Shown one piece after another: positions 1-50,077 of a DNA stretch of 64,000 bases; the first letter of the stretch is position 1, and each line of letters opens with the position of its first letter. The position numbers and the translations under genes were made by a program. The stretch lies in IMG/VR virus record IMGVR_UViG_3300020204_000044. One strand, written 5' to 3'. The notes beneath the pieces were generated by a model that worked only from the letters and a program-made list of their open reading frames with translations, was not told the DNA's origin and made no database searches. This DNA comes from an uncultured virus (IMG/VR IMGVR_UViG_3300020204_000044). Taxonomy: Duplodnaviria > Heunggongvirae > Uroviricota > Caudoviricetes.

Positions 1-246
1 CTAGACGGCACTAGCATTTGGGACTACGACTATGCTAAACACGGCATGCAGGTTAATGTTACGCACATAGGCGTTACAGAATACGACGACGAAGACTGCA
101 ACAAAGCGATTTATGTTACGCACGACGCAGGCTGGCAAATTTACACAGACACAGGCTTTGAGGCTAGCATTAGTGCTGTGCTAGGCTTTACTGTTACGTT
201 TACAGAGCAGGGCATGCAAGAGGACGGACACGCTAGCATGGAGTAG
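1..246 (+). CDS. Hypothetical early protein, 5' end outside window
   Basis: Frame is open from base 1 (CTA GAC GGC ... LDGTSIWDYDYAKHG) into the ATG at 46 and on to TAG at 244-246; acidic, no Pro. Confidence 0.7.
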   Translation, partial: LDGTSIWDYDYAKHGMQVNVTHIGVTEYDDEDCNKAIYVTHDAGWQIYTDTGFEASISAVLGFTVTFTEQGMQEDGHASME

Positions 247-266
247 CACTACGCAACACAGCACAC

Positions 267-295
267 TTGACAATTTGAGTGTGCTGTGTTATACT
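267..295 (+). promoter_or_regulatory. sigma70-type early promoter embedded in a 13-bp inverted repeat
   Basis: TTGACA 267-272, 17-nt spacer, TATACT 290-295; arms AACACAGCACACT 255-267 and AGTGTGCTGTGTT 278-290. Confidence 0.85.
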
Positions 296-336
296 GTTTT
301 TGTTGTTAGTTAGTAAACAAACAAATAGGAGCGTAT

Positions 337-663
337 ATGCAAAACAAAGCAACAGACAAGCAGTTTACAGACATATTTGCTACGACACTTGCAAGTGTGC
401 AACAGTACATAGACTTTTGTAAACTGTGCAAAGTAGTAGACGCTGACTTAGACACAGCAGACTTAATTGCACAAGTAAACACGCACTTTGACGACGTAGC
501 ACATATTACTAGTGCGCTAGCAGAGTTTGCGCAGACTAAAAACATGCAAGACTTGCACACTAAAATTATGCGACAAGACACTTTTGTGCGCGAGTATTTT
601 ATAGACACATTGCAGTACATAGAGCAAAGTAAAAATTACACGGGCTACTGCGCCTGCTTGTAA
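337..663 (+). CDS. Hypothetical early protein
   Basis: 108-aa ORF, AGGAG Shine-Dalgarno just upstream, downstream of the promoter at 267. Confidence 0.8.
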   Translation: MQNKATDKQFTDIFATTLASVQQYIDFCKLCKVVDADLDTADLIAQVNTHFDDVAHITSALAEFAQTKNMQDLHTKIMRQDTFVREYFIDTLQYIEQSKNYTGYCACL

Positions 664-683
664 TATAAACGCAGTGTGCGCAT

Positions 684-703
684 GTTAGTGTGCGCACACT
701 AAC
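684..703. repeat. Perfect 20-bp palindrome GTTAGTGTGCGCACACTAAC followed by C-tracts
   Basis: Read directly; GCATGTTAGTGTGCGC (680-695) recurs at 2216-2231. Confidence 0.9.
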
Positions 704-738
704 CCCCCCAGACCCCCTGTTAAGCAGGCAAAAATTGG

Positions 739-767
739 TTGACAATTTGATTGGTCGGTAGTATACT
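739..767 (+). promoter_or_regulatory. sigma70-type early promoter
   Basis: TTGACA 739-744, N17, TATACT 762-767; context GGTTGACAATTTG...GGTAGTATACTAA. Confidence 0.85.
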
Positions 768-798
768 AATGACACTGGGACATTGAAAGGAGCGAACG

Positions 799-912
799 AT
801 GTTTAGACTTATCGGTATTGCCGCAGTCTTGTATGTGGGTTGGATCACCGGCATCATCCAGGCCACGCTGATCCTCATGGCCGCAGGGCTGACCACGATC
901 GCGGGGCTGTAA
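799..912 (+). CDS. Small hydrophobic membrane peptide (37 aa, not in ORF track)
   Basis: MFRLIGIAAVLYVGWITGIIQATLILMAAGLTTIAGL; AAGGAG SD upstream; TAATG overlap with the next start. Confidence 0.7.
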   Translation: MFRLIGIAAVLYVGWITGIIQATLILMAAGLTTIAGL

Positions 913-1130
913 TGCCTAGATATACATTCAGCCGCGCCTCTGTGATAGACGAGATCTTCACTGTGGATGCGGCTGATCTAGAGGCTGCACAGCAGATGGT
1001 CTACGATGGAGATCCTAAGGTCAAGATAGAACAGGGCGAGTGGATAGATTGGTATCACCAAGAATACACCCTGGAATCGGAGGAAGACGACCTAGTCACA
1101 TTCCTACGCACCAAGGATCGAATCGGTTGA
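912..1130 (+). CDS. Hypothetical acidic early protein (start moved to ATG 912)
   Basis: MPRYTFSRAS...; start coupled to the upstream stop by TAATG. Confidence 0.7.
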   Translation: MPRYTFSRASVIDEIFTVDAADLEAAQQMVYDGDPKVKIEQGEWIDWYHQEYTLESEEDDLVTFLRTKDRIG

Positions 1131-1155
1131 CAATTTGGCTCACAGGTAGTATACT
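1127..1155 (+). promoter_or_regulatory. sigma70-type early promoter, probably leaderless transcript
   Basis: TTGACA 1127-1132, N17, TATACT 1150-1155; ATG at 1162 only 6 nt downstream, no SD. Confidence 0.85.
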
Positions 1156-1161
1156 AAGAAC

Positions 1162-1386
1162 ATGATGACGTTAACCGCACTTAAATGGCTAGGCACTGGG
1201 TTTACCATCCTAGGCGCACTACTAACCAGCCTGGGCGACTGGGATCCCCTGAACGTGATCGCATTCAACCTGGGCGCGGGATTTTGGCTGTGGGCTAGCA
1301 TCCGTATGCGAGACTCTGCGCTGATAACCGTGAATGCTGTGTTGTTGACAATCTATGCGTTTGGTAGTATACTAAGATTACAGTGA
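1162..1386 (+). CDS. Small membrane protein (about 3 TM segments)
   Basis: 74 aa, three hydrophobic stretches. Confidence 0.75.
   Translation: MMTLTALKWLGTGFTILGALLTSLGDWDPLNVIAFNLGAGFWLWASIRMRDSALITVNAVLLTIYAFGSILRLQ
1345..1373 (+). promoter_or_regulatory. sigma70-type early promoter inside the upstream CDS
   Basis: TTGACA 1345-1350, N17, TATACT 1368-1373; same GGTAGTATACTAAG context as at 1145-1158. Confidence 0.8.
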
Positions 1387-1780: not shown

Positions 1781-1996
1781 ATGATCACTATCACGGGACT
1801 CACTGAACTGCAGCGAGACATCGCTGATCGCTTGTGGGCATTGGACACCACGGAGGCGGTAGAGCAGTACATCTCCACGCTGCCCAAGTCGCTGCGGCGC
1901 CAAGCATGGGTGGTCCAGCAGATGATCATAGCAGCAGAACTAGACTCTTACATGGAGATCACGGATGAACTACACGATTATCTGCATAGCCGCTAG
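1781..1996 (+). CDS. Hypothetical early protein
   Basis: 71-aa ORF packed in operon. Confidence 0.65.
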   Translation: MITITGLTELQRDIADRLWALDTTEAVEQYISTLPKSLRRQAWVVQQMIIAAELDSYMEITDELHDYLHSR

Positions 1997-2165
1997 CCTA
2001 GTCCTAGTGCAGGGCTGTGCTACACGCGACCCACGCGATGCACCTTGGGATCCTCCACAGGGTCGGCTGCTGTTCGAGCAGATCCCCCCATGGGATGATC
2101 GTGCCCACAGGGTCTGCTGTGGCCACCTGAGGAGGTGTGAGCCTCACCAGTCACCGAGGTGCTGA
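1965..2165 (+). CDS. Putative small lipoprotein, Cys-rich C-terminus
   Basis: Hydrophobic N-terminus ending in a lipobox-like LVQG-C; RVCCGHLRRC...PRC tail. Confidence 0.55.
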   Translation: MNYTIICIAASLVLVQGCATRDPRDAPWDPPQGRLLFEQIPPWDDRAHRVCCGHLRRCEPHQSPRC

Positions 2166-2196
2166 GGGGTCTATGGTGGTGAGGGGTCTATGGTGG
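2163..2196. repeat. 17-bp tandem repeat x2 (TGAGGGGTCTATGGTGG)
   Basis: Copies at 2163-2179 and 2180-2196. Confidence 0.9.
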
Positions 2197-2345
2197 TCGA
2201 CCGGTATACAGCGTAGCATGTTAGTGTGCGCTAACTTAGGCTAGTGGTCTAAAATCACCACCCTGAAAACCTAAGTACTCCACCTAAATTTTTTGCGCGG
2301 CCAATTTTTTCCCCTGCAGGACCCATTTCAGCAGTAAATAGTCTT

Positions 2346-3236
2346 ATGACTACCTTACACACTTTCGGCTGTTCTATCACACAGGGTTTTGCCCTACCCG
2401 ATGTTGTACAGCCTTTAACTGATGATCAAGGCCGTGTGCTGCCAGGTTATCTAGCCTCTAATATGCTGGAGTCAGGTGAGGCACAATGGGAAGACATACA
2501 CGTATATGCACCTTCAAATCACGCTTGGCCTGCGGTCTTGGCAGCAAAGCTGGGCGTGCCAGTTAATAATCATGCTCGTCGTGGTGCCTGCTTTAATCAA
2601 ATCGCCCGCCAGTGTGCTGCCAATCAGGGCAGTATACAACCCCAAGACACAGTCATAGTCATGTGGACTTATCTGAGCCGTGTCAGCCTACAGTGGCCCG
2701 CTCGTACCGCAGTGCCATTCTGCAACATGGTAGATCCTGGTTGGGGTTGGACTAGCCGTATTTTACCAGGATTTAACAAGTTTTTTGGCTTGAGCAGATC
2801 ATCACCACGGTCCCAGGCACAAGACCAGGATCACTACACGTACATAGAATCTCGGGCTCGCTTGGCCTTGGATCCCAGATCAGTCTATGATCAATACCAT
2901 CAGAATCTAGTCACAGTGGTCACAGTGGATGGACTGCTGCGAAGCACAGGTGCTCGAGTCATACATCTATCAGTGGAAGTACAGCCATATATGGAGCAAC
3001 TGGTTCAGGCTCAGCGTGAGCTCGCCATTAATCTTCGTGAGTATTCTGCCATTCCTGATCCCTGTGAGTGGTACGCTGTCTCAGTAGATCACGCCTCAGC
3101 TAGAATCATACATGATCCTCGTATACCGCCCGCAGAAAACGACATGCACCCTTCGGTCACACATCACAGCAACTTCGCTGATCTGATCTATGATCGCTAT
3201 TTTACCGCTGACCGCTGCGCTGCTTCGCAGCCTTAA
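2346..3236 (+). CDS. SGNH/GDSL-like hydrolase or acyltransferase
   Basis: N-terminal FGCSIT, W-P motif, N.A..G block, C-terminal NDMHPS; TAAATA-N5-ATG upstream. Confidence 0.6.
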   Translation: MTTLHTFGCSITQGFALPDVVQPLTDDQGRVLPGYLASNMLESGEAQWEDIHVYAPSNHAWPAVLAAKLGVPVNNHARRGACFNQIARQCAANQGSIQPQDTVIVMWTYLSRVSLQWPARTAVPFCNMVDPGWGWTSRILPGFNKFFGLSRSSPRSQAQDQDHYTYIESRARLALDPRSVYDQYHQNLVTVVTVDGLLRSTGARVIHLSVEVQPYMEQLVQAQRELAINLREYSAIPDPCEWYAVSVDHASARIIHDPRIPPAENDMHPSVTHHSNFADLIYDRYFTADRCAASQP

Positions 3237-3271
3237 AAAATTTTTACGCTGCCCTTGGGAATATATACTAT

Positions 3272-3478
3272 ATGATTTGGGAAACTCCTACACGCAGCCT
3301 AGTTAAAACCGTTATCTATCGCGTATGGGTTTTGATCACTACTTATATAATGCTCTTAGTCACTGGACAGAGTCTAGAATCAGCACTCGTTCCCACTCTA
3401 GTTATTAATGCCATATGGATGACTTCATTCTACGTCTATGATCGTATCTGGGCCAGGATCTCCTGGGGGCGCAGATAA
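3272..3478 (+). CDS. DUF2061-like small membrane protein
   Basis: ETPTRSLVKTVIYR start and YDRIW..ISWG end. Confidence 0.65.
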   Translation: MIWETPTRSLVKTVIYRVWVLITTYIMLLVTGQSLESALVPTLVINAIWMTSFYVYDRIWARISWGRR

Positions 3479-3500
3479 ATACTTGACGAGGAGCAACGAT

Positions 3501-3689
3501 ATGGCCAATACCACGAAAAAAACCCTAGAAGACACCCGAGAAACAGAACGGCAGAATCAAGGTCGCGAACCAGAAGGTCGCGCACGAGTGATGCCCCAGC
3601 CCATGGGCAGTGATTTCAGTGACGTCACTGCCACACCCCATAATCCACAACAGTACGATCCCACCACGCAGGGACTGAGACCAGTTTAA
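3501..3689 (+). CDS. Hypothetical protein (start moved to ATG 3501)
   Basis: TAAATA 3476-3481 then GAGGAG SD before MANTTKK. Confidence 0.6.
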   Translation: MANTTKKTLEDTRETERQNQGREPEGRARVMPQPMGSDFSDVTATPHNPQQYDPTTQGLRPV

Positions 3690-3695
3690 TCCCAG

Positions 3696-4133
3696 ATGGA
3701 TCACAGTGTCCGCCAACAGTTCCAGCAGTTGGTAGAAGATCACAGCCAGGCAGTGGGTTTCGCAGCACCACAGAGTCTCAGAGACTATCTAGCTCTGATC
3801 TTGGCCGAACGCTTTGATCGCCCCGGATTCATACCCGAGCCCACGTTCGCAGAAGCCTATCTCAGGCTGTATTCTGCATACCGGCCCGGTGTCTATCGTG
3901 AGTTCGCTGATTCTACCTTGGTGTTCTGCAGCCTACTACCAGAATACGGTCAGCGCCGGGGCATCAGCAGGGACTACTATGCCAGTCTAGCCATATCTAC
4001 CTACTACAGTTTAGCCGATCTCGCACACGACGATCGCTACACCCAGTTGGGCAATTGGTTCTATACCTGCCAGGGTTTCCTCTGCAGCCTGCTGCATCCA
4101 CAAAGACACCTACGGTTAGTCGAACTGGACTAA
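3696..4133 (+). CDS. Hypothetical alpha-helical protein
   Basis: 145-aa ORF; LLPEY..RRG.S.DYY..LA.S.Y pattern resembles an uncharacterised bacterial family. Confidence 0.6.
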   Translation: MDHSVRQQFQQLVEDHSQAVGFAAPQSLRDYLALILAERFDRPGFIPEPTFAEAYLRLYSAYRPGVYREFADSTLVFCSLLPEYGQRRGISRDYYASLAISTYYSLADLAHDDRYTQLGNWFYTCQGFLCSLLHPQRHLRLVELD

Positions 4134-5177: not shown

Positions 5178-6062
5178 ATGCCTACCATCTACGTTTTCGG
5201 TGATTCGTTCACTGTGCCCAATCAAATCTACTCCGGCGCATCCCTCCACGGACTTTATGCCAGCCCCGGCGAAAGCTGGCAGCAGGGGCAGCCTCGTCCC
5301 AAGACCGCGACCTGGATCAATCTAGTGGCTGCTGCGCTGAGCCAACAGCATCTAGATCTGGATCTGATCAATCACAGCCAGCACGGAGTAGCACAGGATT
5401 TCTGCTGGACCCAGATCAACAAGGCCATGCCAGTGATCAATCCCGATGACTACGTGATAGTGGCGGTCACGCATCCCAATAGATTCTGGTACATCCACGA
5501 ACATCCCAATCTGTCAAATCACCACATCATACACATTGACCAGTATCTGGAAAAAGAGCAGGCACAGGCCATAAAACTGTTCATGCAGCACATACAGCGG
5601 CCCGAACTGGACACTCTACACCAGACCAATCGCATGAAGAGCCTGGCCTACGAAGTGCTGAAACGAGGACTGCGCAGACCATTGATGATCAACTGTTTCG
5701 CCACGGATATCACAGAAGTTGACAGCATAGAAGAACTGGCCTGGGCCCAGGGCAATCTCTTCACTATACAGGCGCAGGAATATCTCCGAGGTAAAGACGA
5801 CAGTGCCAATTTTTTCAAAGGCATAGACTGCAGATACAATCATCTCTGCCTCAGCAATCACAGGATCTTGGCTGACAAGGTCGTCGCGGCTTTCACAGAA
5901 GGCGCGGTGGTCGATCTAGATCAGGGATTCTATCAAGGACTGTTGAAGGATGGCGTGCTAGATGACCTAGAGTTTTGCCAGAGAGAGTTGGACTGGGACA
6001 AGATGCAGTTCATCACACAGCAGCAACAGCAGCAAAAACGCACATGGATGAAATTGAGATAA
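5178..6062 (+). CDS. SGNH-like protein, tandem paralog 1
   Basis: FGDSFT motif, N.S..G block, DCRYNHL. Confidence 0.65.
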   Translation: MPTIYVFGDSFTVPNQIYSGASLHGLYASPGESWQQGQPRPKTATWINLVAAALSQQHLDLDLINHSQHGVAQDFCWTQINKAMPVINPDDYVIVAVTHPNRFWYIHEHPNLSNHHIIHIDQYLEKEQAQAIKLFMQHIQRPELDTLHQTNRMKSLAYEVLKRGLRRPLMINCFATDITEVDSIEELAWAQGNLFTIQAQEYLRGKDDSANFFKGIDCRYNHLCLSNHRILADKVVAAFTEGAVVDLDQGFYQGLLKDGVLDDLEFCQRELDWDKMQFITQQQQQQKRTWMKLR

Positions 6063-6063
6063 T

Positions 6064-6927
6064 ATGAGTAGATTATTCGTGATCGGAGACAGTTTTTCAG
6101 CCAGCCCAAAGAAAGGCGACGAAACCAAGAATTGGTGCAGATTGTTGGCAGAACGGTTGCATCAAGAAACCGGACGAGATATCACGCTGATCAACAACAG
6201 TCTGGTGGGAACCAGCCAAGAATGGTGCTGGACGCATCTGCAGATTTGGTTGAACTATGAAATGACTGCAGATGATTACCTGGTGATCTGCCTCACGCAT
6301 CCCAGCAGGGTATGGTTCTTGGATCACATGCCCGAAATGACCAATGCCAACATAATCGATCTAGATCGTTGGGTCACCAAAGAAGAAGCCAAAGCCATAG
6401 AACTCTATATCAGATACATACAGCGTCCCATGATAGATCTCATGAACGTCAATAACAGATTGGCCTATGTGGCCTATCAGACGCAGCGCAGATCTCTAAG
6501 GAAACCTTTGATCATCAAATGCTTCGATCAAGATTTGGATCAGGCCGTGGAATTCCCGGAACTTTTGATCGCTCAAGGATCTCTGATGTCAGACGTGCAG
6601 TATCATGAATTTGATGATCCCGAAGCAGAAAGAGAAAATAGATTTTGGCGAGGCATAGACTGCAGATATAATCATCTCTGCCTCAGCAATCACGAGATCT
6701 TGGTCCAGAAATTGCTGGACAGTTTTGTATCTGGACAGGCCCTGGATCTCCAATCTGGATTCCATAGGGCGCTATTGAAACCAGGGGCGCTGGATGATAT
6801 AGAATTCTGCCAGAGAGAACTGGACATGCAGACCAGGAAAAACAATCTCGAGAATACCGATAAATTCAAGCCTATCATACCTTGGGCCAAACGAGTGGGT
6901 GTCAAAACCGGCCAAATAGATGCCTGA
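6064..6927 (+). CDS. SGNH-like protein, tandem paralog 2
   Basis: IGDSFS, THPSR, IQRP and GIDCRYNHLCLSNH shared with the upstream gene. Confidence 0.65.
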   Translation: MSRLFVIGDSFSASPKKGDETKNWCRLLAERLHQETGRDITLINNSLVGTSQEWCWTHLQIWLNYEMTADDYLVICLTHPSRVWFLDHMPEMTNANIIDLDRWVTKEEAKAIELYIRYIQRPMIDLMNVNNRLAYVAYQTQRRSLRKPLIIKCFDQDLDQAVEFPELLIAQGSLMSDVQYHEFDDPEAERENRFWRGIDCRYNHLCLSNHEILVQKLLDSFVSGQALDLQSGFHRALLKPGALDDIEFCQRELDMQTRKNNLENTDKFKPIIPWAKRVGVKTGQIDA

Positions 6928-6984: not shown

Positions 6985-7656
6985 ATGGATCGTAGTCTTT
7001 CAGCCGTAGAAAGCCTAAACACAGCAGTAGCGGGTGTTTTGGGTCGTATGGCAGTGGGTGTTTTCGCTACTTTGGTCGCAGCCGCCGTCATCAACGCCAT
7101 GGGTCTAGTGCCCGTGCTGTTTGGCGGCATCCTAGGATATGTGATCATCTTCGCTCCTCTCGGTATGAGCCTGTTCCTGGCCTGGAAGGGTGCAGAAATG
7201 TCGGAGAGCACCATCAAGGCATGGTATTTTGCCTTTGCTGCTGTGATGGGTGTCAGCCTTAGTCTGATCATCAGCATGTTTACCACAGCCTCGATAGTCA
7301 ATGCTCTAATTGGTACCACTGTGAGTTTTGGTGCCTTGGCAGCATGGGGATACTTCACCAAACGTGATATATCTGGATGGGGACCATTCTTGTTCGCAGG
7401 TGTCATCGGATTGATCGTGGCAGGTATCGCTAACATCTTTATCGCTAGCACCGCTCTGCAGATGACCTTGAATGTGTTGACCATCTTGATCTTCCTAGGA
7501 CTCACAGCCTATGACATGAATCGCATCCGTGATATGTTCTGGTCAGCCAGCGAAAGCGAAATCGCTAGGCTGCAGTGGTTTGGAGCACTGAGCCTCTACA
7601 TCAACTTTATCAATATTTTCGTGAGCCTACTGCAGTTATTTGGCAATAGAGAATAA
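6985..7656 (+). CDS. Bax inhibitor-1 / YccA-YbhL family membrane protein
   Basis: About 7 TM helices; GYFTKRDISGWGPFL, GLTAYDMNRIR, ALSLYINFINIF. Confidence 0.9.
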   Translation: MDRSLSAVESLNTAVAGVLGRMAVGVFATLVAAAVINAMGLVPVLFGGILGYVIIFAPLGMSLFLAWKGAEMSESTIKAWYFAFAAVMGVSLSLIISMFTTASIVNALIGTTVSFGALAAWGYFTKRDISGWGPFLFAGVIGLIVAGIANIFIASTALQMTLNVLTILIFLGLTAYDMNRIRDMFWSASESEIARLQWFGALSLYINFINIFVSLLQLFGNRE

Positions 7657-10064: not shown

Positions 10065-10666
10065 AATATAACGTAATCAATTATAAGACATTTCCTTGGA
10101 ATGGATTTCACAGGATATACTCCATGGAATACATCTCCTTTTGCTATTATACACTTTCCTGGTTCTGGAAGTAAAGCCTTATAACAGGGAGGATTACCGT
10201 CTGTCATAAAAGCGTAAAAGGCCCCGTGTAGATCTTCTTTTTCATCTAAATTCTGTTCTTTAACAGCCTCTGTATAAATTATCTGTGTGATAGATTTTTT
10301 TCCGTGGCTATGGACGCTTTGCCAACCACCTTCTCGATAATCTACCATCCAACTTATCGCTGGCTCTATATCATAATAGATACAATTTTCATACAGACGT
10401 TTTCGAGTCCACTTCGCTATCTTTTCTACGATCGGAAAAAATATTGCTGGATCTATCATTTCACTTTCGCCATAAAACCGATGATTTATTCTTGTAGATA
10501 ATTCAGGATCTCTCCACATAGGAAATTGCCAGGCATTAAATGACGAAGTTTCACGGCTATAGTCTTTTTTAGAATCACCGATTGTAAAAGGTTTTATATC
10601 CTCATAATCGTTATAATATGAATCTAATAAAAATTGATTGCCGCAGACATAAAGATTATTGGTCAT
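10061..10666 (-). CDS. 2OG-Fe(II) oxygenase-like protein
   Basis: SWMVDY..GGWQSVHSH, FHGVYP, RKCL. Confidence 0.6.
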   Translation of the reverse strand: MTNNLYVCGNQFLLDSYYNDYEDIKPFTIGDSKKDYSRETSSFNAWQFPMWRDPELSTRINHRFYGESEMIDPAIFFPIVEKIAKWTRKRLYENCIYYDIEPAISWMVDYREGGWQSVHSHGKKSITQIIYTEAVKEQNLDEKEDLHGAFYAFMTDGNPPCYKALLPEPGKCIIAKGDVFHGVYPVKSIPRKCLIIDYVIL

Positions 10667-11631
10667 TTTATTTCTATGTGCTTAGCCAGTTCGCCTTTCC
10701 AATCGATCCTAATCTGTCGGCGATACAGTGCTGCACCAATGGCACTGCTGGCATCACCGGGGATCGGCAAACTCCATATACGATCATATTGTCCTGACAA
10801 TTTTTTGTTGAATTTGCTGTTCATGGCGCAGCCACCCATGTATACTAGATTTTTACTAGGCGCTAATTTTTTTGCCCAATCGAAAACATGTTGGGCCTGC
10901 ACCTCGAATTCTTCTTGCACAGCAGCAGCCAGATCAAAAATATTTTGTTGATCCATATCTAGAAATGGCCAATTCCAAACACCTCTATGTAAATTATATC
11001 TCATGGTGAGATCTGATCTCCAATATTTTTTGACCAAATCTCTATACCTCCCGGGATCGCCCCGATCGCTTAATTTTTGCAAAACGTGTTCTTCACCCAA
11101 CGGTTTCAAACCAACTAAATCTGTGAATGCCGAATAAAATATACCAAGGCTAGTCGGATAAGATCTGCTAAACACCTTTTCTAACTTCATATTGTCGGCC
11201 TGCCATATAGATATGCTTTCCCATTCCCCTATGGCATCTATCACCACCACAGAGGCTTGATCAAAAGGACTAGTATAATACCCGGCTGCGGCATGACTGA
11301 GATGATGATCCATGTATGAAATCTTTACTTTTGGCCATCCCAGTTTTTTTAGATATCTACTCGGTATATCGTTTAAATCAAATGCAGCATAAAACTGTCC
11401 TGCATACACCTGCCTACACTTTTTCCACAGGGGTCGTTCATACCAAACGATTTCATCCGGCGACCTACCATTGCTATGATTTAGCGCATCGAAATAGATC
11501 CTTGAACAGAGATATTGATCACCGATTGAGCCAGAATATTCAGCACTGCGTTTCCAAAATTTTAAACCGGTGTCATCAACGACAGCGATACTGGCGTCGT
11601 GATTGAGGGCATTGATACCCCATGTAATCAT
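10663..11631 (-). CDS. Carbamoyltransferase N-terminal (Kae1-like) domain only
   Basis: WGINALNHDAS, HHLSHAAA, VIDAIGE, GGCAMN, PGDASSAIGAA, then ends; start moved to ATG 11631 (ATGA overlap). Confidence 0.85.
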   Translation of the reverse strand: MITWGINALNHDASIAVVDDTGLKFWKRSAEYSGSIGDQYLCSRIYFDALNHSNGRSPDEIVWYERPLWKKCRQVYAGQFYAAFDLNDIPSRYLKKLGWPKVKISYMDHHLSHAAAGYYTSPFDQASVVVIDAIGEWESISIWQADNMKLEKVFSRSYPTSLGIFYSAFTDLVGLKPLGEEHVLQKLSDRGDPGRYRDLVKKYWRSDLTMRYNLHRGVWNWPFLDMDQQNIFDLAAAVQEEFEVQAQHVFDWAKKLAPSKNLVYMGGCAMNSKFNKKLSGQYDRIWSLPIPGDASSAIGAALYRRQIRIDWKGELAKHIEIK

Positions 11632-11765
11632 ATCATCATTCCTCTTTGACATTCTACCTTATATATCATAATATATTCTGGGATATGTATCATAGATAAT
11701 AGAGCCAAAAATGAGAAAGTGGCTGCCATAAATCCTAGGAAGAAAGAGAAAAGATATTTTTTCAT
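11628..11765 (-). CDS. Small membrane peptide (45 aa, not in ORF track)
   Basis: MKKYLFSFFLGFMAATFSFLALLSMIHIPEY...; ATGA overlaps at both ends. Confidence 0.55.
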   Translation of the reverse strand: MKKYLFSFFLGFMAATFSFLALLSMIHIPEYIMIYKVECQRGMMI

Positions 11766-21896: not shown

Positions 21897-22880
21897 ATGA
21901 AAAAGATTGCATTTGTTACCGGAATGACCGGGCAAGATGGTCCGTATCTAGCAAAACTACTACTAGAAAAAGATTATAAGGTCTACGGACTGATAAAAAG
22001 GTATTCCAACCCTAATTTAGACAACATAACATATCTCGGAATCGAACACGATGTCGAATTAATCACCGGCGATATCACTGATGATGGATGCATGAATCAT
22101 TTGATTAAAAGTCTCAAACCCAATGAGTTTTATAATCTCGCAGCACAGAGTTTCGTGGGAGCCAGTTGGGATCTGAACAAATTGACCACCGAAGTAAATG
22201 CCGTCGGAGTGCTTAATATTCTAAACGCCATCAAGCAGCACAACCCCGACACTAGATTTTATCAGGCATCTACCTCAGAGATGTACGGAAACAGCATTGA
22301 AATCTCAGGTGGACACCAAGATGAATCTACACCTTTCTGGCCTCGCAGTCCCTACGGTGTGGCTAAATTATATGCCTATTGGATGACCATAAATTTCCGT
22401 GAAAGTTACAGTCTGCATGCTTCAAACGGAATATTGTTTAATCACGAATCCCCCATCCGAGGCAAAGAATTCGTCACTAGAAAGATCACAGACGGCGTGG
22501 CCAAGATCAAATGCGGTCTAGCAGACAGTATCACGTTAGGTAATCTCGATGCCAAGAGAGATTGGGGATTCGCTGGCGATTTCGTAGAAGCCATGTGGTT
22601 GATGCTACAACAAGATGAACCCGGCGACTATGTCGTGGCCACAGGGCAACAATATACCATAGGTGATCTATTAGAACGTGCATTTAAATATGCTGGAATC
22701 GATGACTGGCAGCAGTATGTTAAAAGTGATCCCAGATTTAAACGTCCTGCAGAATTGTTTAGCCTCTGCGGTAGTCCGAAAAAAGCGGAGACAGTGCTAG
22801 GCTGGCAACGACGCACAAGTTTTGAAGATCTTGTCAGAATGATGGTAGAGGCCGACATACAAAGATATCAGACTAAATGA
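21897..22880 (+). CDS. gmd: GDP-mannose 4,6-dehydratase
   Basis: TGMTGQDG, NLAAQSFV, YQASTSE, PRSPYGVAK, LFNHESP, GNLDAKRDWG. Confidence 0.95.
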   Translation: MKKIAFVTGMTGQDGPYLAKLLLEKDYKVYGLIKRYSNPNLDNITYLGIEHDVELITGDITDDGCMNHLIKSLKPNEFYNLAAQSFVGASWDLNKLTTEVNAVGVLNILNAIKQHNPDTRFYQASTSEMYGNSIEISGGHQDESTPFWPRSPYGVAKLYAYWMTINFRESYSLHASNGILFNHESPIRGKEFVTRKITDGVAKIKCGLADSITLGNLDAKRDWGFAGDFVEAMWLMLQQDEPGDYVVATGQQYTIGDLLERAFKYAGIDDWQQYVKSDPRFKRPAELFSLCGSPKKAETVLGWQRRTSFEDLVRMMVEADIQRYQTK

Positions 22881-26801: not shown

Positions 26802-27594
26802 TGAGTATTCTCCAGGCGGTGCCATCTTTTAGTTCAGTTATATGAAATTGACCATAGGCAAGATGACAGGCCCACGCATATACTTGATCTTGATCGGGAT
26901 AATACGGTGTTTCTATTTTACTCAAATCTTGAGAGGTGACTGGTTTCGCAGCATGTGTAGGAGATAGGGTAAATGCAGGATATCCGTACATGACTGCCTC
27001 GGTGGCTGCATTGCTATTGAAAGTCACGAGACAATGAACATCATCATCTAACGCTTCTTTCAGTGTGCTGTTAACTGTTCGTTCTAATCTACTTTTGACT
27101 CGTTCTCGGATCTCCACAGGACGGTCGGTATATTTTTTAATCGTATCGACAGTTTCCTGTAACCAGTCTTTTAATTCTAAACCATAAAATTTCATAGGTT
27201 TTTCGTCAGGCTTAGCAATTAGGATTTTTCTTCCACCTTTCTTCCAATGGTGTATAGGAATTGCCAACTTACGAAATCTATCATCGGGTCTTTTGATTAA
27301 TTCGGTATGCTGAAGATCATTTTTTACGATTCTATGATAATATTTCCATCCCATAGGGTTTAATGGACCTCGCATATTTCCCATATATCCCGTGTCCATA
27401 AAATAAAAGTCTCTGCCGTCTAGCCAGCATTTTTTCATTATCTTATGCTTGAGTATACCTCTCAGTACTATAGGATCTTCGCTGTCTCTATAATTAAAAT
27501 CGTCGGTGTTGATTATTCGGCCACCACTGCCCATACCGAACATATTGATATATTCGTCTTTGCCTTCTTTGCTTAGAAATATCCAGTTATTCAT
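26791..27594 (-). CDS. KpsS/KpsC-like GT-B protein
   Basis: MDTGY, ILIA.P, LVTFNSNAA.EAV..GYP. Confidence 0.65.
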   Translation of the reverse strand: MNNWIFLSKEGKDEYINMFGMGSGGRIINTDDFNYRDSEDPIVLRGILKHKIMKKCWLDGRDFYFMDTGYMGNMRGPLNPMGWKYYHRIVKNDLQHTELIKRPDDRFRKLAIPIHHWKKGGRKILIAKPDEKPMKFYGLELKDWLQETVDTIKKYTDRPVEIRERVKSRLERTVNSTLKEALDDDVHCLVTFNSNAATEAVMYGYPAFTLSPTHAAKPVTSQDLSKIETPYYPDQDQVYAWACHLAYGQFHITELKDGTAWRILNEQ

Positions 27595-28355
27595 CGGCGT
27601 TCAATGTCCGCTTCTACGCAATTTTCACCGTATTGAATTTCTATTATTTTCAAAGGAAGATCTGTCTCGTTGGCTAGCTGATGCCAAGAATCGGCCGGTA
27701 TCCAAATATGTTGATGTTCTTTGAACATTCCAGCAGATTCAACATCTGTACTGGAATTTACAGTGTACAAAGATGCTGTTCCCTCTGCGACAAACCAGAA
27801 TTCTGATCTCTGTTGATGTTTCTGCATGCTTAAACTTTTTCTCGGATCTACCATCAGTTCTTTTAATTTAACTTGTTTAGTTGGTTCGTGTAAAACTCTA
27901 TAGTATCCCCATGCTCTTTCAGTTTTAGGAGCCTTCCACTCTTCAAGAATCCAAGAACTAGAGTTAGCTTTGTTAAATCCACCGATGCCAAACACAAACT
28001 TTAAATTATCGTCTTGAATATCCATTTCGGGGATATTTTGATCTGTACGATCGCCGCCGTTGGCAAATATAATTTGATCTTGAGGGTAACTTTGTCTCAC
28101 CATACGAAGAGCATGCCGGGCGGAGCCGTCGTCGTCATTAAAATCGATGACAAAATCTATTCCTACGATATTACGAACAATCGTTGCTCGTTCTGCGTAG
28201 GGCATAAACGCTTGACCCTTTTTACGAGCTAACCAGGCATCTGAGTTAACACCTACTACAAGTATATCGCCTAGTTTTTTTGCCTCTTTAAAATAATTAA
28301 TATGTCCTGAGTGGATTGGGTCAAATCCGCCGGTAACCAAAACTATTGTTTTCAT
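27591..28355 (-). CDS. Cytidylyltransferase (HxGH, RfaE/TagD-like) fused to type II mannose-6-P isomerase cupin
   Basis: TGGFDPIHSGH, GVNSD, FANGGDR; ERAWG.Y, LSMQKH..RSE.W, IEIQYG...E.DIER. Confidence 0.85.
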   Translation of the reverse strand: MKTIVLVTGGFDPIHSGHINYFKEAKKLGDILVVGVNSDAWLARKKGQAFMPYAERATIVRNIVGIDFVIDFNDDDGSARHALRMVRQSYPQDQIIFANGGDRTDQNIPEMDIQDDNLKFVFGIGGFNKANSSSWILEEWKAPKTERAWGYYRVLHEPTKQVKLKELMVDPRKSLSMQKHQQRSEFWFVAEGTASLYTVNSSTDVESAGMFKEHQHIWIPADSWHQLANETDLPLKIIEIQYGENCVEADIERR

Positions 28356-29023
28356 ACAAAATCCTTATGAATATACATTACATCACTTTCAAACTTAATA
28401 TGTTCTACATATCCCCATCCAAACAATAGCGCATTTATTTTTTCTTTTGGCCAGCCATACGCATCACCGAAGCCGTTAATTTCTAATGCAATTACTGGTT
28501 TAGATCGTTTAATTGTTTCTTCTGCACCTAGTAATGCGAACCCTTCAAATCCTTCGATATCTAAATGTATTAGTGACGGGGTTAGGCCGAAATGATCAAT
28601 TTTGACCTGTGGGATTATTCCTTCTCCTGCAATTCGTAATCCACCAAGATTTAGATCGTGATCTTTATGAAGTTCTAAACTAAGGGGAATATTATCATTA
28701 CCAATACATGCTCTAAATTTAAACACATTTTCTTCTGGAACATTGTAAGAAAGGCAATAAAAATTTCTATGATCGGGTTCAAACGTTACTACGGTATTAA
28801 ATAGTTTAGCATATTGTTTTGGATAGTACCCAGCATTGCCACCAGCTTGAATAACTAAATTTTTTTCTTTGCAATGCTCGGCAATTTTTTTTGGCAAATG
28901 ACGAAATCTTTCTTTATTTAAATGATGCCAGCACCACTTATCTTCGATTGGCCATAACCAATCGCCACCCTCTTTAGGATCTTTTCTGATTTCTAAGTTT
29001 AAGTGTTTAAACATAATTTCCAT
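28352..29023 (-). CDS. FkbM-family SAM methyltransferase
   Basis: IQAGGNAG, TFEPD, LDIEGFE..AL.GA...I....PVI.LE. Confidence 0.85.
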   Translation of the reverse strand: MEIMFKHLNLEIRKDPKEGGDWLWPIEDKWCWHHLNKERFRHLPKKIAEHCKEKNLVIQAGGNAGYYPKQYAKLFNTVVTFEPDHRNFYCLSYNVPEENVFKFRACIGNDNIPLSLELHKDHDLNLGGLRIAGEGIIPQVKIDHFGLTPSLIHLDIEGFEGFALLGAEETIKRSKPVIALEINGFGDAYGWPKEKINALLFGWGYVEHIKFESDVMYIHKDFV

Positions 29024-29574: not shown

Positions 29575-29915
29575 AAAAACCCTTTATTTCGTTCAACATT
29601 CCATGCAATTGCAGTTTTTAATCCTGCAGGCTTGGTATCATTAATAATTATCCTTTCTCCGAGAGGTAGCTCGAACAATGCGAAATTATAACGTAAACCG
29701 CTGTCTTGTAAAAAATTTAGTGTAGATTTTCGATATTGTTCAGAACGTCCTGTAGTAATTATGATATAATCATTCTCCGGAATTGTATTCCAAAATTCAA
29801 TAACTCCAGGCAGTAGTCGATCTTCACTATGCAAATGTGCATTGTGGTCTAATATGGTTCCGTCTAAATCAATAAACCAGGTATGTGGTAATTCACTTAA
29901 TTCAAATGGGATCAT
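29571..29915 (-). CDS. HAD-family phosphatase
   Basis: FIDLDGTI, ITTGR, INDTKP. Confidence 0.8.
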   Translation of the reverse strand: MIPFELSELPHTWFIDLDGTILDHNAHLHSEDRLLPGVIEFWNTIPENDYIIITTGRSEQYRKSTLNFLQDSGLRYNFALFELPLGERIIINDTKPAGLKTAIAWNVERNKGFL

Positions 29916-31429
29916 AACTCTTGCAATCCCTGTTCAAGATAATGCAATCCAAGATAGAAACTACCAATGACGCTATCAATATCGTCTTTTGCATAACCGC
30001 TTAAGGATAACCAAATTAGCCCATGTAATATTTTAATCTTAGCAATTTTGTTACCAAAATACTCAGTAAAAATTTCCTCAGCATATATTTCAAATCTCGT
30101 TGATTCTTGTAAAATTTCTACAGTTTCTCTATCTATATGAAGTTTAAACTTTCTACGATTAAACATATCATAACCCCCAACTGCACTATAATATACTTTA
30201 GCAAAGTCGTACATTGGATCTCCCCATATTCCTGGTTTGCTAAAATATCCTCGCGGATCGATGTACCATACTTTTAAATTTTTATCTATAAGACTGTTAC
30301 TAAATGTTGGATCGCCGTGTATTGGTGTAAATATCGACGGTTGAATAGTCGTAAGAATAGTCTCAAATAAATGTTTGTACTTTTCTGCAAATACATTTTT
30401 ACATTTTAATCCATTTACCGTAATAGAGTCTTGATCAAAATTAGGAATTATTTTTGAAACACTATTAACACGATTTAATGTTTTTGTAATATAAGTATCA
30501 ACAACATCTTCGCTAATTACTGGTCTAGTAGATAGGTCGTGCAAGGACGTTAGTGAATCTAAATAGTCAGCCAGCACCGCACGTTTTTCTCGTTCAGTAA
30601 GATTTAACATTTGATATGCATGATTTCCATTAATTTTAGTCATGACATACGGATCTATTGAAATAATCTTTGGAATTCTACGAAATCCTAGATCACTAAC
30701 ACTCTTATACCAATCCTGTTCTTTACCTATCAAATGTAGATAGTCAGAATTAATTGCACGTTTTTCGACAGTAGATTCGTTAATTTTTACCTCATTGAAA
30801 AATCTACTAAACCCTGCTCGATCGTTTTGTGTTTCGATAGTTGAAAAGTCGCCTAATTCTTCTAAGTCGTTGCATACTACTGTGTTGAACTGTGTTATAT
30901 TCTTACTGAACCATTTTACAAATTCTCCGCTTGTGGGCGGCTCCGGAAAATACTCAGCACGTCTAACATGAAAGATTCCAGGGATACCATTTGGTCCTGG
31001 TTGTTCTATCAATGCACCTGCATCGTTCTGAGTCCATCGACAGGTGAATGCATTTGTCGTGATAACAGTAGGTAAGGATGAATCTACAATAGACGGCATC
31101 CTACCAATAATTAAATCGCTCCAAGTAATTATAAGTTCAGCATCGTTAGGAACAGCTTTAAGAGCATCACCAATGCCGCTAGCAGTTCCTTTTTCGTCGG
31201 TTTGAATTAAGGTATAATTAACTGACGGGGTATTCACTTGTAGATATTTTTCAAGCTGATCATAAGCATAGTCACCAATGATATGAAAATGTGCTGTTGG
31301 AAATCGATCAAACAAATGATATAACAACGGTTTTCCTCGAACACTAACTAAACATTTTGGTTTATTCCATGTATGGTGTCTCAAACGACTACCACGGCCA
31401 CCGGCCTGAACAATAATGTGTAAATTCAT
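29912..31429 (-). CDS. Sugar nucleotidyltransferase fused to an APH/choline-kinase-like domain
   Basis: QAGGRGSRL...KPK, GTA, WSD; HGDPTFSN, IDPRG, GD..YDFAK. Confidence 0.8.
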   Translation of the reverse strand: MNLHIIVQAGGRGSRLRHHTWNKPKCLVSVRGKPLLYHLFDRFPTAHFHIIGDYAYDQLEKYLQVNTPSVNYTLIQTDEKGTASGIGDALKAVPNDAELIITWSDLIIGRMPSIVDSSLPTVITTNAFTCRWTQNDAGALIEQPGPNGIPGIFHVRRAEYFPEPPTSGEFVKWFSKNITQFNTVVCNDLEELGDFSTIETQNDRAGFSRFFNEVKINESTVEKRAINSDYLHLIGKEQDWYKSVSDLGFRRIPKIISIDPYVMTKINGNHAYQMLNLTEREKRAVLADYLDSLTSLHDLSTRPVISEDVVDTYITKTLNRVNSVSKIIPNFDQDSITVNGLKCKNVFAEKYKHLFETILTTIQPSIFTPIHGDPTFSNSLIDKNLKVWYIDPRGYFSKPGIWGDPMYDFAKVYYSAVGGYDMFNRRKFKLHIDRETVEILQESTRFEIYAEEIFTEYFGNKIAKIKILHGLIWLSLSGYAKDDIDSVIGSFYLGLHYLEQGLQEL

Positions 31430-32205: not shown

Positions 32206-32927
32206 TAAAAAATATTTTCCTAAAGTATAACAAAGATCCTAAAGAGAATCCGTCGTCAATCCAGTGTTTAAATTTTTGGTTAGATATTTTTGCAGATAGA
32301 AACATCTATATTATCTGTGATATGTTTGATCCTACTTTAAAGTTTCCGAAACATTTTATAAATTATTCCTCATTTCAATTTATAAATTCTAATTACGCAT
32401 TATCTGCACCTATTGATCATTTATTAGAATCAAAAAGATGGAAAAATGTTGCAGCATCAAATTTGTCGTGTTATGAAAAAAGCGGTAATGATCCTTTTTG
32501 GTTAATCGATGCTGACGACACAATGTTTATAACATTTGATATAGATTTAATTAAATCAAAAATAATTTTATCTGAAAATTATTTTTTAGAAAATAAATTA
32601 GATGGATTTTCATTAGATTTTTATAGAACATTTAAGCGTGATCATTGGAGTTTTGGTGTTGCTTTATTACAAAATAGAACTGACTTAATTTCTATTATAC
32701 AATCAACCGATTTAGATTTTTTTCGTACATTAAAACTTCCATATAATCTCGATGCGCTGTTTGATTGTAATAGACGACAGGAAAAATTAAAATTAGAAAG
32801 TTTTATATTTGATAAGATGTTTTTTCAACATCAGTTAGAACAAAAATTTTTACCGTATGGCATATACAAATGGCAAGATCAAAAATTATGGGACATAAAA
32901 TTAAATCCTATGGTTAGGATTTTTTGA
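32202..32927 (+). CDS. Putative GT-A glycosyltransferase
   Basis: FWLIDADD DxD motif; glycan island context. Confidence 0.5.
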   Translation: MIKNIFLKYNKDPKENPSSIQCLNFWLDIFADRNIYIICDMFDPTLKFPKHFINYSSFQFINSNYALSAPIDHLLESKRWKNVAASNLSCYEKSGNDPFWLIDADDTMFITFDIDLIKSKIILSENYFLENKLDGFSLDFYRTFKRDHWSFGVALLQNRTDLISIIQSTDLDFFRTLKLPYNLDALFDCNRRQEKLKLESFIFDKMFFQHQLEQKFLPYGIYKWQDQKLWDIKLNPMVRIF

Positions 32928-33875
32928 GTAATATTCACTATTTTTGAGCCAATGGTAATAACGTTCAAATCCTTCTTCTATATCTACAATTGGATTAAAC
33001 CCAAAGTCTCTACGTGCTGCATCGATATCTAACGCACCACGACTAGGAAAATCTGCATCTTTATCTCGAAGTTCGATAGTTCCTTTTCCTACTAATTTAA
33101 CAGCCAATTGGGCTGCTTCATACAAAGTTTTACTGTGACTTTTCGTAATATTGTAGGTTTTATTTTTTGTATTTTCCGATAGAAGGGCTTGCACGATTCC
33201 ATTGGCCGCATCGTCGACATAGGTAAAATCTAGCGTTTCATTAACACCGTTGACTTTAAGAACACCGCCCCTCATAGCAGTTAGTAAGAATTTAGAAATT
33301 ACACGGTCTTCGACATCTAAAGGACCATATACAGCACTGGGACGAAATATAGTATAATCTATACCTCGCCTTTGATAATCGCGGATTAACCATTCTCCAG
33401 CCAGTTTGAGTATACCGTATTGCCCTTGTGGTCGACATTCTGCATCTTCGGTGACATAGTTTTTGAAGTCACCGTAGACCATACTGCTGCTAGTATATAA
33501 AAATCTGTAACAACAAAATTTTAAACATGATTCTAATAGATTAAGTAATCCTTCACTCATTACCCTAGCACCGAGCGCAGGGTCAGAATTAACAACTTTC
33601 TGTCTAGGGAAACTAGCCAAATGTATGACAGCATCTGGATGATAATTTCTAAACAACCATTCGACATTATCTCGATCGCTGATGTCAATTCTGTGTATTT
33701 TTTCTGACCGAATAAATTTTAATCTTTCTGAGATAAGATAATCTATCTCTAGTTGAGGGATTATACCGTAATTAGTTCTAGTGTCGGTAATAATAACGTC
33801 ATAGCCGATTCCCTCTAATTTTTTAATTACATTATGACCAATTAAACCTAACCCGCCTGTTACTAGTACATTCAT
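32901..33875 (-). CDS. NAD-dependent nucleotide-sugar epimerase/dehydratase
   Basis: VTGGLGLIG, HLA, SSSMVYG, YGILK (YxxxK), RPSAVYGP, DFTYVDD. Confidence 0.92.
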   Translation of the reverse strand: MNVLVTGGLGLIGHNVIKKLEGIGYDVIITDTRTNYGIIPQLEIDYLISERLKFIRSEKIHRIDISDRDNVEWLFRNYHPDAVIHLASFPRQKVVNSDPALGARVMSEGLLNLLESCLKFCCYRFLYTSSSMVYGDFKNYVTEDAECRPQGQYGILKLAGEWLIRDYQRRGIDYTIFRPSAVYGPLDVEDRVISKFLLTAMRGGVLKVNGVNETLDFTYVDDAANGIVQALLSENTKNKTYNITKSHSKTLYEAAQLAVKLVGKGTIELRDKDADFPSRGALDIDAARRDFGFNPIVDIEEGFERYYHWLKNSEYYSKNPNHRI

Positions 33876-49079: not shown

Positions 49080-49415
49080 ATGCGCCTTTTATGTAAAACC
49101 TGCGGTGAAAAACCTCGTGCTGTGAACTATCACAAAGGAGGAAAAATATTTTATCGACACCAATGTGATACCTGCGCTCGAGGTGCTGATAGTAAACGAC
49201 CTCGATGGTATCAATCAGGATATCGACAAAAAGATTCTTGTGAAAAGTGTGGATTCAGGAGCAGACATCCAGAGCAGTTCAACGTGTTTCACGTAGATGG
49301 AAATCTAGATAACTGCCGTCCTAGCAACCTCAAGACAGTATGCGCGAACTGCCAACGAATTCTGCATCGAGAAGGCGTCCGTTGGCGCCAGGGAGATCTT
49401 GTCCCTGATGTATGA
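49080..49415 (+). CDS. HNH endonuclease-like Zn-binding protein
   Basis: CxxC pairs, VFHVDGN..N...NL.TVCANC; TATAAATA directly upstream. Confidence 0.75.
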   Translation: MRLLCKTCGEKPRAVNYHKGGKIFYRHQCDTCARGADSKRPRWYQSGYRQKDSCEKCGFRSRHPEQFNVFHVDGNLDNCRPSNLKTVCANCQRILHREGVRWRQGDLVPDV

Positions 49416-50025: not shown

Positions 50026-50077
50026 AATGTCCTCCAATTACAGACATTATAGCAAATTTAATGTAGAATAATCAACC

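Follow-up and report, generated by a model that had tools for sequence, protein, structure and literature searches.

Several described systems free sequences from the motifs that a host factor reads. Suppression of CpG counters ZAP, and suppression of UpA counters RNase L; in restriction-site avoidance, as in the first-step-transfer DNA of phage T5, early-expressed DNA lacks the targets of host defence. The APOBEC3 footprints of human viruses consist in depletion of a short host-factor motif in TC/CC context, as described in PMC7449416, and Rho is avoided through a 'purine bias' in which sense-strand composition removes the CC and UC signals that Rho reads (PMC13323073). The immune enzymes Cas13 (PMC10196884) and CmdT (PMC11618068) attack single-stranded RNA at a dinucleotide, and a message lacking that dinucleotide would be immune. 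At the level of DNA, the 7-deazaguanine systems of DpdA have motifs of the class G followed by a purine (PMC10484667, PMC7544227). Finally, the PeSL promoter-terminator cassettes of T4-type phages join an early sigma70-type promoter to a stem-loop and flank small open reading frames (ORFs) without assigned function (PMC2839356, PMC4122927). Here we describe a locus that resembles each of these systems in part. It lies at the start of a 64,000-nucleotide (nt) stretch of DNA from an uncultured virus (IMG/VR record IMGVR_UViG_3300020204_000044; the whole stretch is called the window below), where a small two-gene module is almost free, on the + strand, of pyrimidine-C steps (YC; TC or CC in DNA, UC or CC in RNA).

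The likeness to the described systems is incomplete in every case. The purine bias reported for Rho avoidance is genome-wide and graded (PMC13323073), whereas the present ban on two dinucleotides is absolute, is confined to 1-4 kilobases (kb), costs an amino acid and includes the promoters. The APOBEC3 footprints concern the same TC/CC context, but in the account cited above they are partial and are spread over genomes or classes of genes in eukaryotic viruses; in the present case depletion is total, is restricted to selected phage cassettes and leaves the C content in place. Cas13 and CmdT differ in having no UC plus CC specificity, which no known effector has, and the literature searched yielded no case of phages avoiding motifs of this kind. 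Restriction-site avoidance of the T5 kind involves palindromic sites, both strands and the polarity of DNA entry, whereas here a single strand is affected, and which strand it is follows gene orientation. The motif class of DpdA is the complement of the banned steps, but its gene was not found in 19 related contigs or in the window ORFs scanned. PeSLs, as described in the cited work, account for the shuffling of cassettes and not for a dinucleotide ban; the likeness to them extends to cassette order and content, which vary between close relatives (the order in contig L001 and the loss of one cassette, both described below). A full-text search, with subscription journals outside its coverage, found no published description of such phage cassettes. 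We regard the finding as a new and extreme variant of motif avoidance.

By base counting, the + strand of positions 1-754 contains no TC, the first one lying at 755-756, and before the C-runs at 703-709 and 713-717 its sole CC lies at 653-654. These counts confirm what the original prediction had read from the letters. The whole window contains 4,665 TC and 3,080 CC, and elsewhere in it TC-free gaps do not exceed 136 nt and CC-free gaps do not exceed 214 nt. The longest YC-free run measures 653 nt (positions 1-653), compared with runners-up of 75 nt on the + strand and 102 nt on the - strand; simulating 64 kb 200 times with a first-order Markov model gave longest runs of 80 nt on average and 140 nt at most. 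Only 1 of the 144 C in positions 1-702 is preceded by a pyrimidine, versus 55% across the remaining window. Base composition leads one to expect about 35 TC and about 29 CC in the tract. The complementary steps are kept (41 GA and 22 GG in positions 1-754), and the ban is therefore single-stranded. GAT occurs in the tract once (position 108), as had also been remarked, and GAA, called rare in the original prediction, occurs twice; across 33 such islands the two trinucleotides reach 0.75 and 0.81 of expectation, respectively, so that their near-absence in the window tract is not general.

Positions 1-702 represent the right-hand four fifths of a two-gene module of about 0.87 kb, which is predicted to be immediate-early. 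The module and the sequence that follows it contain the following features:

1-246, + strand: ORF A, last 81 codons and stop codon, the 5' end being cut by the window edge; no YC
255-290, + strand: terminator hairpin of ORF A, 16 base pairs (bp) followed by a U-rich tail; centroid -22.9 kcal/mol, z -2.5
267-295, + strand: sigma70-type promoter P2, TTGACA-17-TATACT; no YC
327-331, + strand: Shine-Dalgarno sequence AGGAG of ORF B
337-663, + strand: ORF B, 108 amino acids; the sole YC of the tract lies in its GCC (Ala) codon at 652-654
673-700, + strand: closing hairpin, 11 bp, with no U-tract behind it; -25.3 kcal/mol for 660-740, z -3.5
703-717, + strand: C7-AGA-C5, the first dense YC past the tract; a variant of the oriented motif GGCCCCGCTG (a variant is also placed at 710-727)
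739-767, + strand: promoter P3 of the next, unconstrained cassette; its spacer contains the first TC (755-756)
799-1130, + strand: two ordinary early genes with 11-13 YC per 100 nt (12.3 overall)

The loop of the hairpin at 255-290 contains the -35 hexamer of P2 (267-272), forming a PeSL-like composite of promoter and terminator. Promoters of the P2 type, a family to which P3 also belongs, have four matches in the window against 0.04 expected. Since promoters, hairpins and ORFs are arranged as a unit, the tract is a transcription module whose left side is cut off by the window edge. ORF A encodes a small acidic protein with the conserved family motifs W-x-IYTD-x-GF and FTEQGMQ.

The tract was also found outside the window. 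The stretch is present in 20 lake-water metagenome runs, among the runs listed, and its 3' junction is bridged by contigs in two of the four runs examined, X3 (692-808) and X4 (673-808), with no joint reported. L001, an independent metagenome contig of 1,797 nt, carries the same module together with its left boundary: the last TC lies at 998, no YC occurs from position 1000 to the contig end, and a complete copy of ORF A (1084-1401) stands behind its own promoter. Window position 1 aligns with L001 position 1168, so that about 168 nt of tract are expected to the left of the window. Neither the bridging contigs nor the left junction in L001 gave any sign of a chimeric join near 700-755, an event that the original prediction had named as speaking against itself. 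The two window genes at 799-1130 sit upstream of the module in L001, not downstream, and thus the cassettes have evidently been shuffled. Loose contig ends at 248 and 673 reveal variant strains that lack the ORF B cassette, the closing hairpin following immediately on the end of ORF A. In yet another variant the part of ORF A upstream of position 50 is replaced by a different segment, which is likewise YC-free.

The proteins encoded in the tract comply with the ban. As had been noticed, they contain no Pro, their Ser codons are only AGY and their Asp codons only GAC (21 of 21). The original prediction had held that codon bias alone could not account for this, non-coding DNA being covered as well, and the codon junctions bear it out. 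In the two ORFs the codon before each of the 27 C-starting codons has A or G as its last base, whereas C or T closes about half of all codons; Gly is encoded by GGC eight times and by GGA once, and the lone GGA stands directly before a His codon, CAC. These patterns indicate that selection acts on dinucleotides and not on codons. Divergence between the window and the related contig points the same way: 24.5% of the possible single substitutions in the tract would make a YC, and none of the 36 differences between the window and L001 creates one (P = 4e-5).

A YC-free code excludes Pro and any [DNHYFCS][QH] dipeptide, that is, a residue whose codons end only in pyrimidines before Gln or His. The five homologues of ORF B (67-97% identity) contain neither Pro nor a forbidden dipeptide. 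Among the 89 homologues of ORF A (42-97% identity), 85 lack Pro and not one contains the dipeptide, against a summed shuffling expectation of 174; kinship inflates this count, but the sequences are nevertheless deeply diverged.

An ORF A profile matched 194 viral contigs, from which 80 loci were kept. In 32 of the 80 (22 of 59 distinct sequences, falling into 16 clusters) the ORF A match contains no YC at all; we call these loci strict. Together, the 22 distinct sequences hold 1,147 C without a single YC, and they are embedded in YC-free runs of 352-2,043 nt, with merged islands of up to 2,251 nt. Nine further loci are leaky, with 1-5 scattered YC (YC/C 0.02-0.08) and no clustering of these YC at transcript 3' ends. 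In the remaining 39 loci the homologue, either stand-alone or as a domain of large acidic proteins, uses YC freely. Relatives that use TC and CC freely, a finding that the original prediction had said would count against it, thus exist, but only among the more distant lineages. This free use in distant lineages shows that the constraint is a property of the phage lineage, not of the protein. As for the large acidic proteins themselves, the ORF A domain lies inside very acidic products of 200-1,000 amino acids in a set of low-GC viral contigs (L019, L020, L028, L030, L033, L042, L049, L051, L055, L060, L078, L081 and L083); these proteins carry recurring '...LAGI/LAGM' motifs, and TC, CC and Pro are used freely.

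At the related loci the ban tracks the sense strand. The cassette at L007 11441-12219, encoded on the - strand, is without GA and GG on the + strand, where TC and CC are present, and in contig G004 the island and its ORF A homologue are both on the - strand. The ban extends to the 5' untranslated regions, to DNA between genes and to the 5' arms of terminators, and the tract stops at the closing hairpin or the C-run; this coverage and this end point indicate a transcription unit and not a domain at a DNA end. The C content of the islands is 17-24%, and this retention of C speaks against mutational decay by deamination.

The islands occupy little of the genomes that carry them. G002 (257 kb) has two of them, at 382-1844 and at 3405-4019, and no others; five ordinary genes (1973-3383) separate the pair. 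In G004 (210 kb) the sole island lies at 195,897-197,115. In G014 (268 kb), which is syntenic with G002, the homologue is the first gene after the same divergent promoter, has 15 YC among 55 C, and the contig contains no island. These contigs show that the constraint is gene-specific and lineage-specific, that it is not scattered and that it can be lost. Similar tracts strewn at random through the genome had been named as a reason to give up the original idea; a 300-nt sliding scan of both strands found none elsewhere in the window, and G002 and G004 have one small locus each. Taken together, these results indicate that the tract is strongly non-random, is maintained by selection and is recurrent. 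The view that it is a specially constrained stretch is upheld.

Some cassettes carry a second ban. Five of them lack GA and GG in addition to TC and CC:

L011, 4815-6434: doubly depleted cassette
L007, 11878-13108: doubly depleted cassette
L008, 6210-7380: doubly depleted cassette
L015, 8864-9638: doubly depleted cassette
L022, 3405-4169: doubly depleted cassette

These cassettes use 12 of the 16 dinucleotides on the sense strand, and a Shine-Dalgarno site is impossible in them. Each has a promoter, and a + strand intrinsic terminator with a run of 7-8 T gives the orientation. The encoded proteins are without Asp, Glu, Gly, Pro and Trp, using 15 amino acids. From the counts we estimate the chance that a frame of 188 codons stays open in such sequence at about 4e-5, and the ORFs are accordingly real.

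Database searches placed none of the encoded proteins. Neither ORF A nor ORF B matched a Pfam family, and none of 26 island proteins matched one in PHROGs; a protein atlas yielded no usable match for island proteins, and the predicted fold of ORF A (pLDDT 85.7) had no Foldseek match in the PDB at E <= 0.001. The ORF B query alone found no relative in the viral contigs, nor did an exact 36-nt pattern find a match there. The nearest genome record, G001, has no match to window positions 1-1200, and a phage collection contained no match for the tract DNA, for ORF A or for two ORF A homologues that use YC freely.

We tentatively favour the interpretation that these are messages built to evade an RNA effector, encoded by the host or by the phage, that reads YC and for which a single hit is enough. 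A factor active at the start of infection would recognise single-stranded RNA at YC steps, and one hit at a YC would suffice to cut or modify the message. The factor could be a host defence RNase or RNA-modifying enzyme, or else the phage's own shut-off weapon. The few genes needed under such an attack, presumably antidote or first-response genes that counteract the agent, would be written without its targets; purifying selection keeps UC and CC out of the module's message strand.

Several observations are consistent with this interpretation. The absence of any YC over up to 2 kb, at the sacrifice of amino acids, fits a reader for which each site counts, and the 1-5 scattered YC of the leaky lineages suggest a hazard graded per site. 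An agent that destroys DNA cannot be foiled by cleaning only 1-4 kb when the genome measures a few hundred kb, and selection must therefore be for expression of these particular genes. Since lesions in the non-template strand would not stop expression, RNA is favoured as the level of action, or alternatively the template strand, read as GA/GG. Ordinary neighbours behind near-identical promoters have 12.3 YC per 100 nt, which makes the ban gene-specific. Known effectors offer precedents of a kind: Cas13 orthologues have collateral cleavage preferences for AU, UC, AC and GA (PMC10196884), and CmdT ADP-ribosylates mRNA at GA (PMC11618068). The UC and GA classes of effector mirror the two bans, with the cassettes that also ban GA/GG corresponding to the second class.

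The same interpretation can be put in a more specific form, which we regard as possible but doubtful. An undescribed effector, either from freshwater or marine bacteria or from the giant phages themselves, would disable single-stranded RNA at any YC, and a second effector would do so at GA/GG. A small set of immediate-early genes of jumbo phages, with the ORF A family as its hallmark, would have been recast in a reduced dinucleotide alphabet, leaving the antidote messages alone invisible to these effectors.

Other observations weigh against an effector that acts on RNA. The cores of island promoters have 3 YC among 162 C, versus 34% in other promoter-like sites, and at island boundaries a mean of 10.4 YC-free C (median 71 nt) lies upstream of the predicted start, versus 2.2 C (16 nt) in controls; a reader working purely at the RNA level does not predict YC-free DNA upstream of the transcription start. 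The inclusion of promoters is explained only partly by the use of the previous cassette's terminator as promoter and by the shuffling of cassettes as units, because the overlap of promoter and terminator accounts for internal promoters and not for those at boundaries. In the doubly depleted cassettes the GA/GG ban complements the TC/CC ban exactly, a symmetry that points to DNA rather than RNA. We know of no effector that reads exactly UC plus CC at single sites, and the agent is to that extent hypothetical. The 26 island proteins all lack a family match, which leaves the antidote role conjectural. Pfam identified no nuclease, RNase or deaminase among the 12 genes that G002 and G004 share and G014 lacks, a weak test given that these contigs are 60-75% complete. 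Promoter inclusion and the symmetry of the double ban are left unexplained by both leading explanations, the RNA effector and Rho, and they are the main reason to keep a DNA-level rival.

Rho is the main rival to the single-hit effector; we consider it unlikely, yet deserving of serious attention. To our knowledge, no other factor has been described whose reading of RNA is confined to exactly UC and CC. Without these steps Rho could not load, and the early genes would be transcribed to their end even when translation lags or stops. The depletion of UC and CC is limited to the sense strand and spans a transcription unit, as such an explanation would have it, and a dense C-run follows a closing hairpin that has no U-tract. 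The specificity matches exactly, the primary binding site of Rho having clefts that bind 5'YC according to a review (PMC12360218), and avoidance of Rho through coding-strand composition has been established for Bacillus genes in a study that names phages among the foreign elements affected (PMC13323073). However, Rho binds several YC over tens of nucleotides cooperatively, so that one or two YC should be neutral, whereas exactly zero YC were found in 32 of the 80 loci and over as much as 2,043 nt, a state that forgoes every Pro codon. Strong Shine-Dalgarno sites precede the island genes, and coupling to translation should protect these. Early neighbours behind near-identical promoters are rich in YC, some of them being C-rich and G-poor. 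Together, the spike at exactly zero, the strong ribosome-binding sites and these YC-rich neighbours, in part with more C than G, argue for a reader of single sites rather than for Rho. Rho likewise leaves unexplained why promoters are included in the ban and why some cassettes have the additional ban on GA and GG.

A template kept free of modification or lesions is, in our estimate, improbable, although it deals with the two features that the RNA effector and Rho leave aside. On this account, which elaborates an idea of the original prediction, G in GA/GG or C in YC would be marked in virion DNA and would hinder the unmodified host RNA polymerase, and immediate-early units would keep one strand clean from promoter to terminator. 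The inclusion of promoter DNA would follow, as would the complement symmetry of the doubly depleted cassettes. A phage DpdA has been described that modifies G at a strict GA motif (PMC10484667), and another that does so at two motifs (PMC7544227). The window itself encodes sugar-nucleotide enzymes, two carbamoyltransferases and a T4-type deoxynucleoside monophosphate (dNMP) kinase. The two DpdA motifs are reportedly GA and GGC. The DpdA systems nevertheless differ from the present case, in that TGT/DpdA was detected in none of 19 related contigs (10 of them strict, these ten being 20-72% complete), whereas the control search detected it in 14 of 14 genomes, and none was found among the window ORFs scanned. 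If the gene were placed at random in each genome, the chance of missing it in all ten strict contigs would be about 0.001 by simple arithmetic. A C5-methylase was likewise found in none of the 19 contigs, and an N6/N4-methylase exceeded the cut-off in only one. Moreover, the replication genes and the adjacent sigma70-driven early genes, which stand behind near-identical promoters, are full of YC and of G-purine steps, and yet they must be read from parental DNA. We know of no effect of such base modifications on RNA polymerase. The idea of a modification-free tract for the host polymerase thus received no support.

We give little credence to the footprint of an enzyme specific for single-stranded DNA, such as an APOBEC-like deaminase, a DarT-like ADP-ribosyltransferase or a dC-specific nuclease, that would act at TC and CC of the displaced coding strand. 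Some APOBEC3 enzymes prefer CC. As a group, APOBEC3 enzymes favour TC, and depletion of the target motif is a known viral footprint (PMC7449416); in the islands TC and CC are both depleted. DarT2 reads TNTC in single-stranded DNA (PMC11543638). The coding strand is also the one exposed in transcription bubbles, and TT is enriched in the islands (observed/expected 1.32, with CT at 1.08). On the other side, expression survives damage to the non-template strand, shielding of 1-4 kb would not save a genome of a few hundred kb, and the islands retain their C content. Equally exposed neighbours with 12.3 YC per 100 nt are unconstrained, each contig having one locus, and replication exposes the whole genome, yet TC occurs elsewhere at the expected frequency. 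DarT1, moreover, has no consensus motif in the account of its authors (PMC11543638), and for the same reason we set it aside as a candidate reader of the G steps.

It is very unlikely that the tract is first-injected or terminal DNA that avoids restriction sites in the manner of T5 first-step transfer, as the original prediction had also proposed. The tract lies at the window edge, homologues lie 0.4-13 kb from the ends of several large contigs, and all palindromic sites containing TC/GA or CC/GG are missing from it; but the ban concerns one strand, with 41 GA and 22 GG retained, so that the symmetry of two strands is lacking, and it switches strand with gene orientation. In addition, ordinary genes interrupt the islands (G002 1973-3383) and lie upstream of the module in L001, and contig ends may be assembly breaks at repeated promoters. 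An artefact, whether a chimeric assembly, a foreign insert or a hypermutated remnant, could be suspected from the abrupt change in composition at about 703-755 but is effectively refuted by the presence of the stretch in 20 lake runs, by the bridging contigs in two of four runs, by the independent junction in L001, by intact ORFs with conserved homologues and by the recurrence of the feature in 16 sequence clusters of viral contigs. What probability these explanations leave over belongs to one of another kind, of which we have not thought.

The window derives from a large myovirus: it encodes T4-like replication proteins, and its large terminase shares 52% identity with that of the Pseudomonas jumbo phage PA5oct group. 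The genome had been described as GATC-rich, and this holds against base composition (545 GATC in the window versus 237 expected, 2.3-fold) but hardly against a Markov model (473 expected, 1.15-fold). AGCT is strongly avoided across the window (32 observed versus 174 expected, ratio 0.18), and CGCG (0.57) and TGCA (0.71) are likewise low; this deficit looks like ordinary restriction-site avoidance, separate from the YC-free tract. A gene set at 10663-11652, 21897-22880, 27591-28355, 28352-29023, 29912-31429, 32901-33875, 49330-50037 and 62336-63997 comprises two carbamoyltransferases, a GDP-mannose dehydratase, an epimerase, a cytidylyltransferase/mannose-6-P isomerase, an NTP transferase, an FkbM methyltransferase and the T4-type dNMP kinase; these genes, which include a sugar-nucleotide and carbamoyltransferase cluster, could be used in hypermodifying DNA or in making glycans. 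Where the early region ends (6985-7656), the window encodes a Bax1-I (BI-1/YccA-like) membrane protein (E = 1e-44), which is common to the strict contigs G002 (248821-249504) and G004 and was not found in G014, where the ORF A homologue uses YC freely. Three proteins of about 290 amino acids (2346-3236, 5178-6062 and 6064-6927, the last two being tandem paralogues) have an N-terminal G-D/C-S-F/I motif, which we take to recall the SGNH/GDSL hydrolases; Pfam gave no match for them.

The motif of which the C-run behind the closing hairpin is a variant recurs at the related loci. In 1.98 Mb of sequence (loci L005-L084, duplicates counted), the 10-mer GGCCCCGCTG has 99 matches with at most one mismatch, almost always in the orientation of the early genes. 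Arrays of it with a spacing of 150-260 nt lie upstream of islands, for example in L015 (7391, 7595, 7842, 8070 and 10686), L017 (8010, 8270 and 8519) and L074 (8582, 8739 and 8941). It also stands directly 3' of islands in L005, L006, L007, L013, L015 and L022, and only about 12 nt are conserved around it. The arrays matched neither a tRNA nor an Rfam family.

Two further observations concern the surroundings of the islands. The ORF A locus often lies 0.01-13 kb from the end of a large contig (L022, L025, L026, L032, L068, L070, L073 and L076, as well as position 1 of the window), which could reflect a genome terminus or assembly breaks at repeated promoter-hairpin modules. In addition, tRNA genes are found a few kb from islands in L015 (13191-13538), L077 (15316-15569), L017 (8840-8915), L066 (15166-15242) and L074 (15592-15668), with Met in all five loci and Arg(TCT) and Leu(TAA) in two. 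Under the YC ban, Leu can be encoded only by UUR and Arg only by AGR after a codon that ends in a pyrimidine; the match with these tRNAs may be coincidence.

The footprint of the ban at the protein and nucleotide level (no Pro, no [DNHYFCS][QH] dipeptide and no YC) provides a cheap key for searching viromes, and YC-free recoding offers a design rule for expression constructs that can be tested directly. Motif purging by viruses reveals what host immunity reads, as CpG suppression and the APOBEC footprints did for vertebrate viruses. That a purge so absolute and strand-specific, limited to a few early genes, recurs in 16 or more diverged lineages of uncultured jumbo phages points to a strong agent reading YC at the very start of infection. 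Should this agent prove to be Rho, no natural evidence would show more cleanly that Rho stands as a front-line barrier against phages and that sequence design can evade its YC code. Should it instead be a new RNase or RNA-modifying defence, the cassettes would mark both its specificity and its likely inhibitors.

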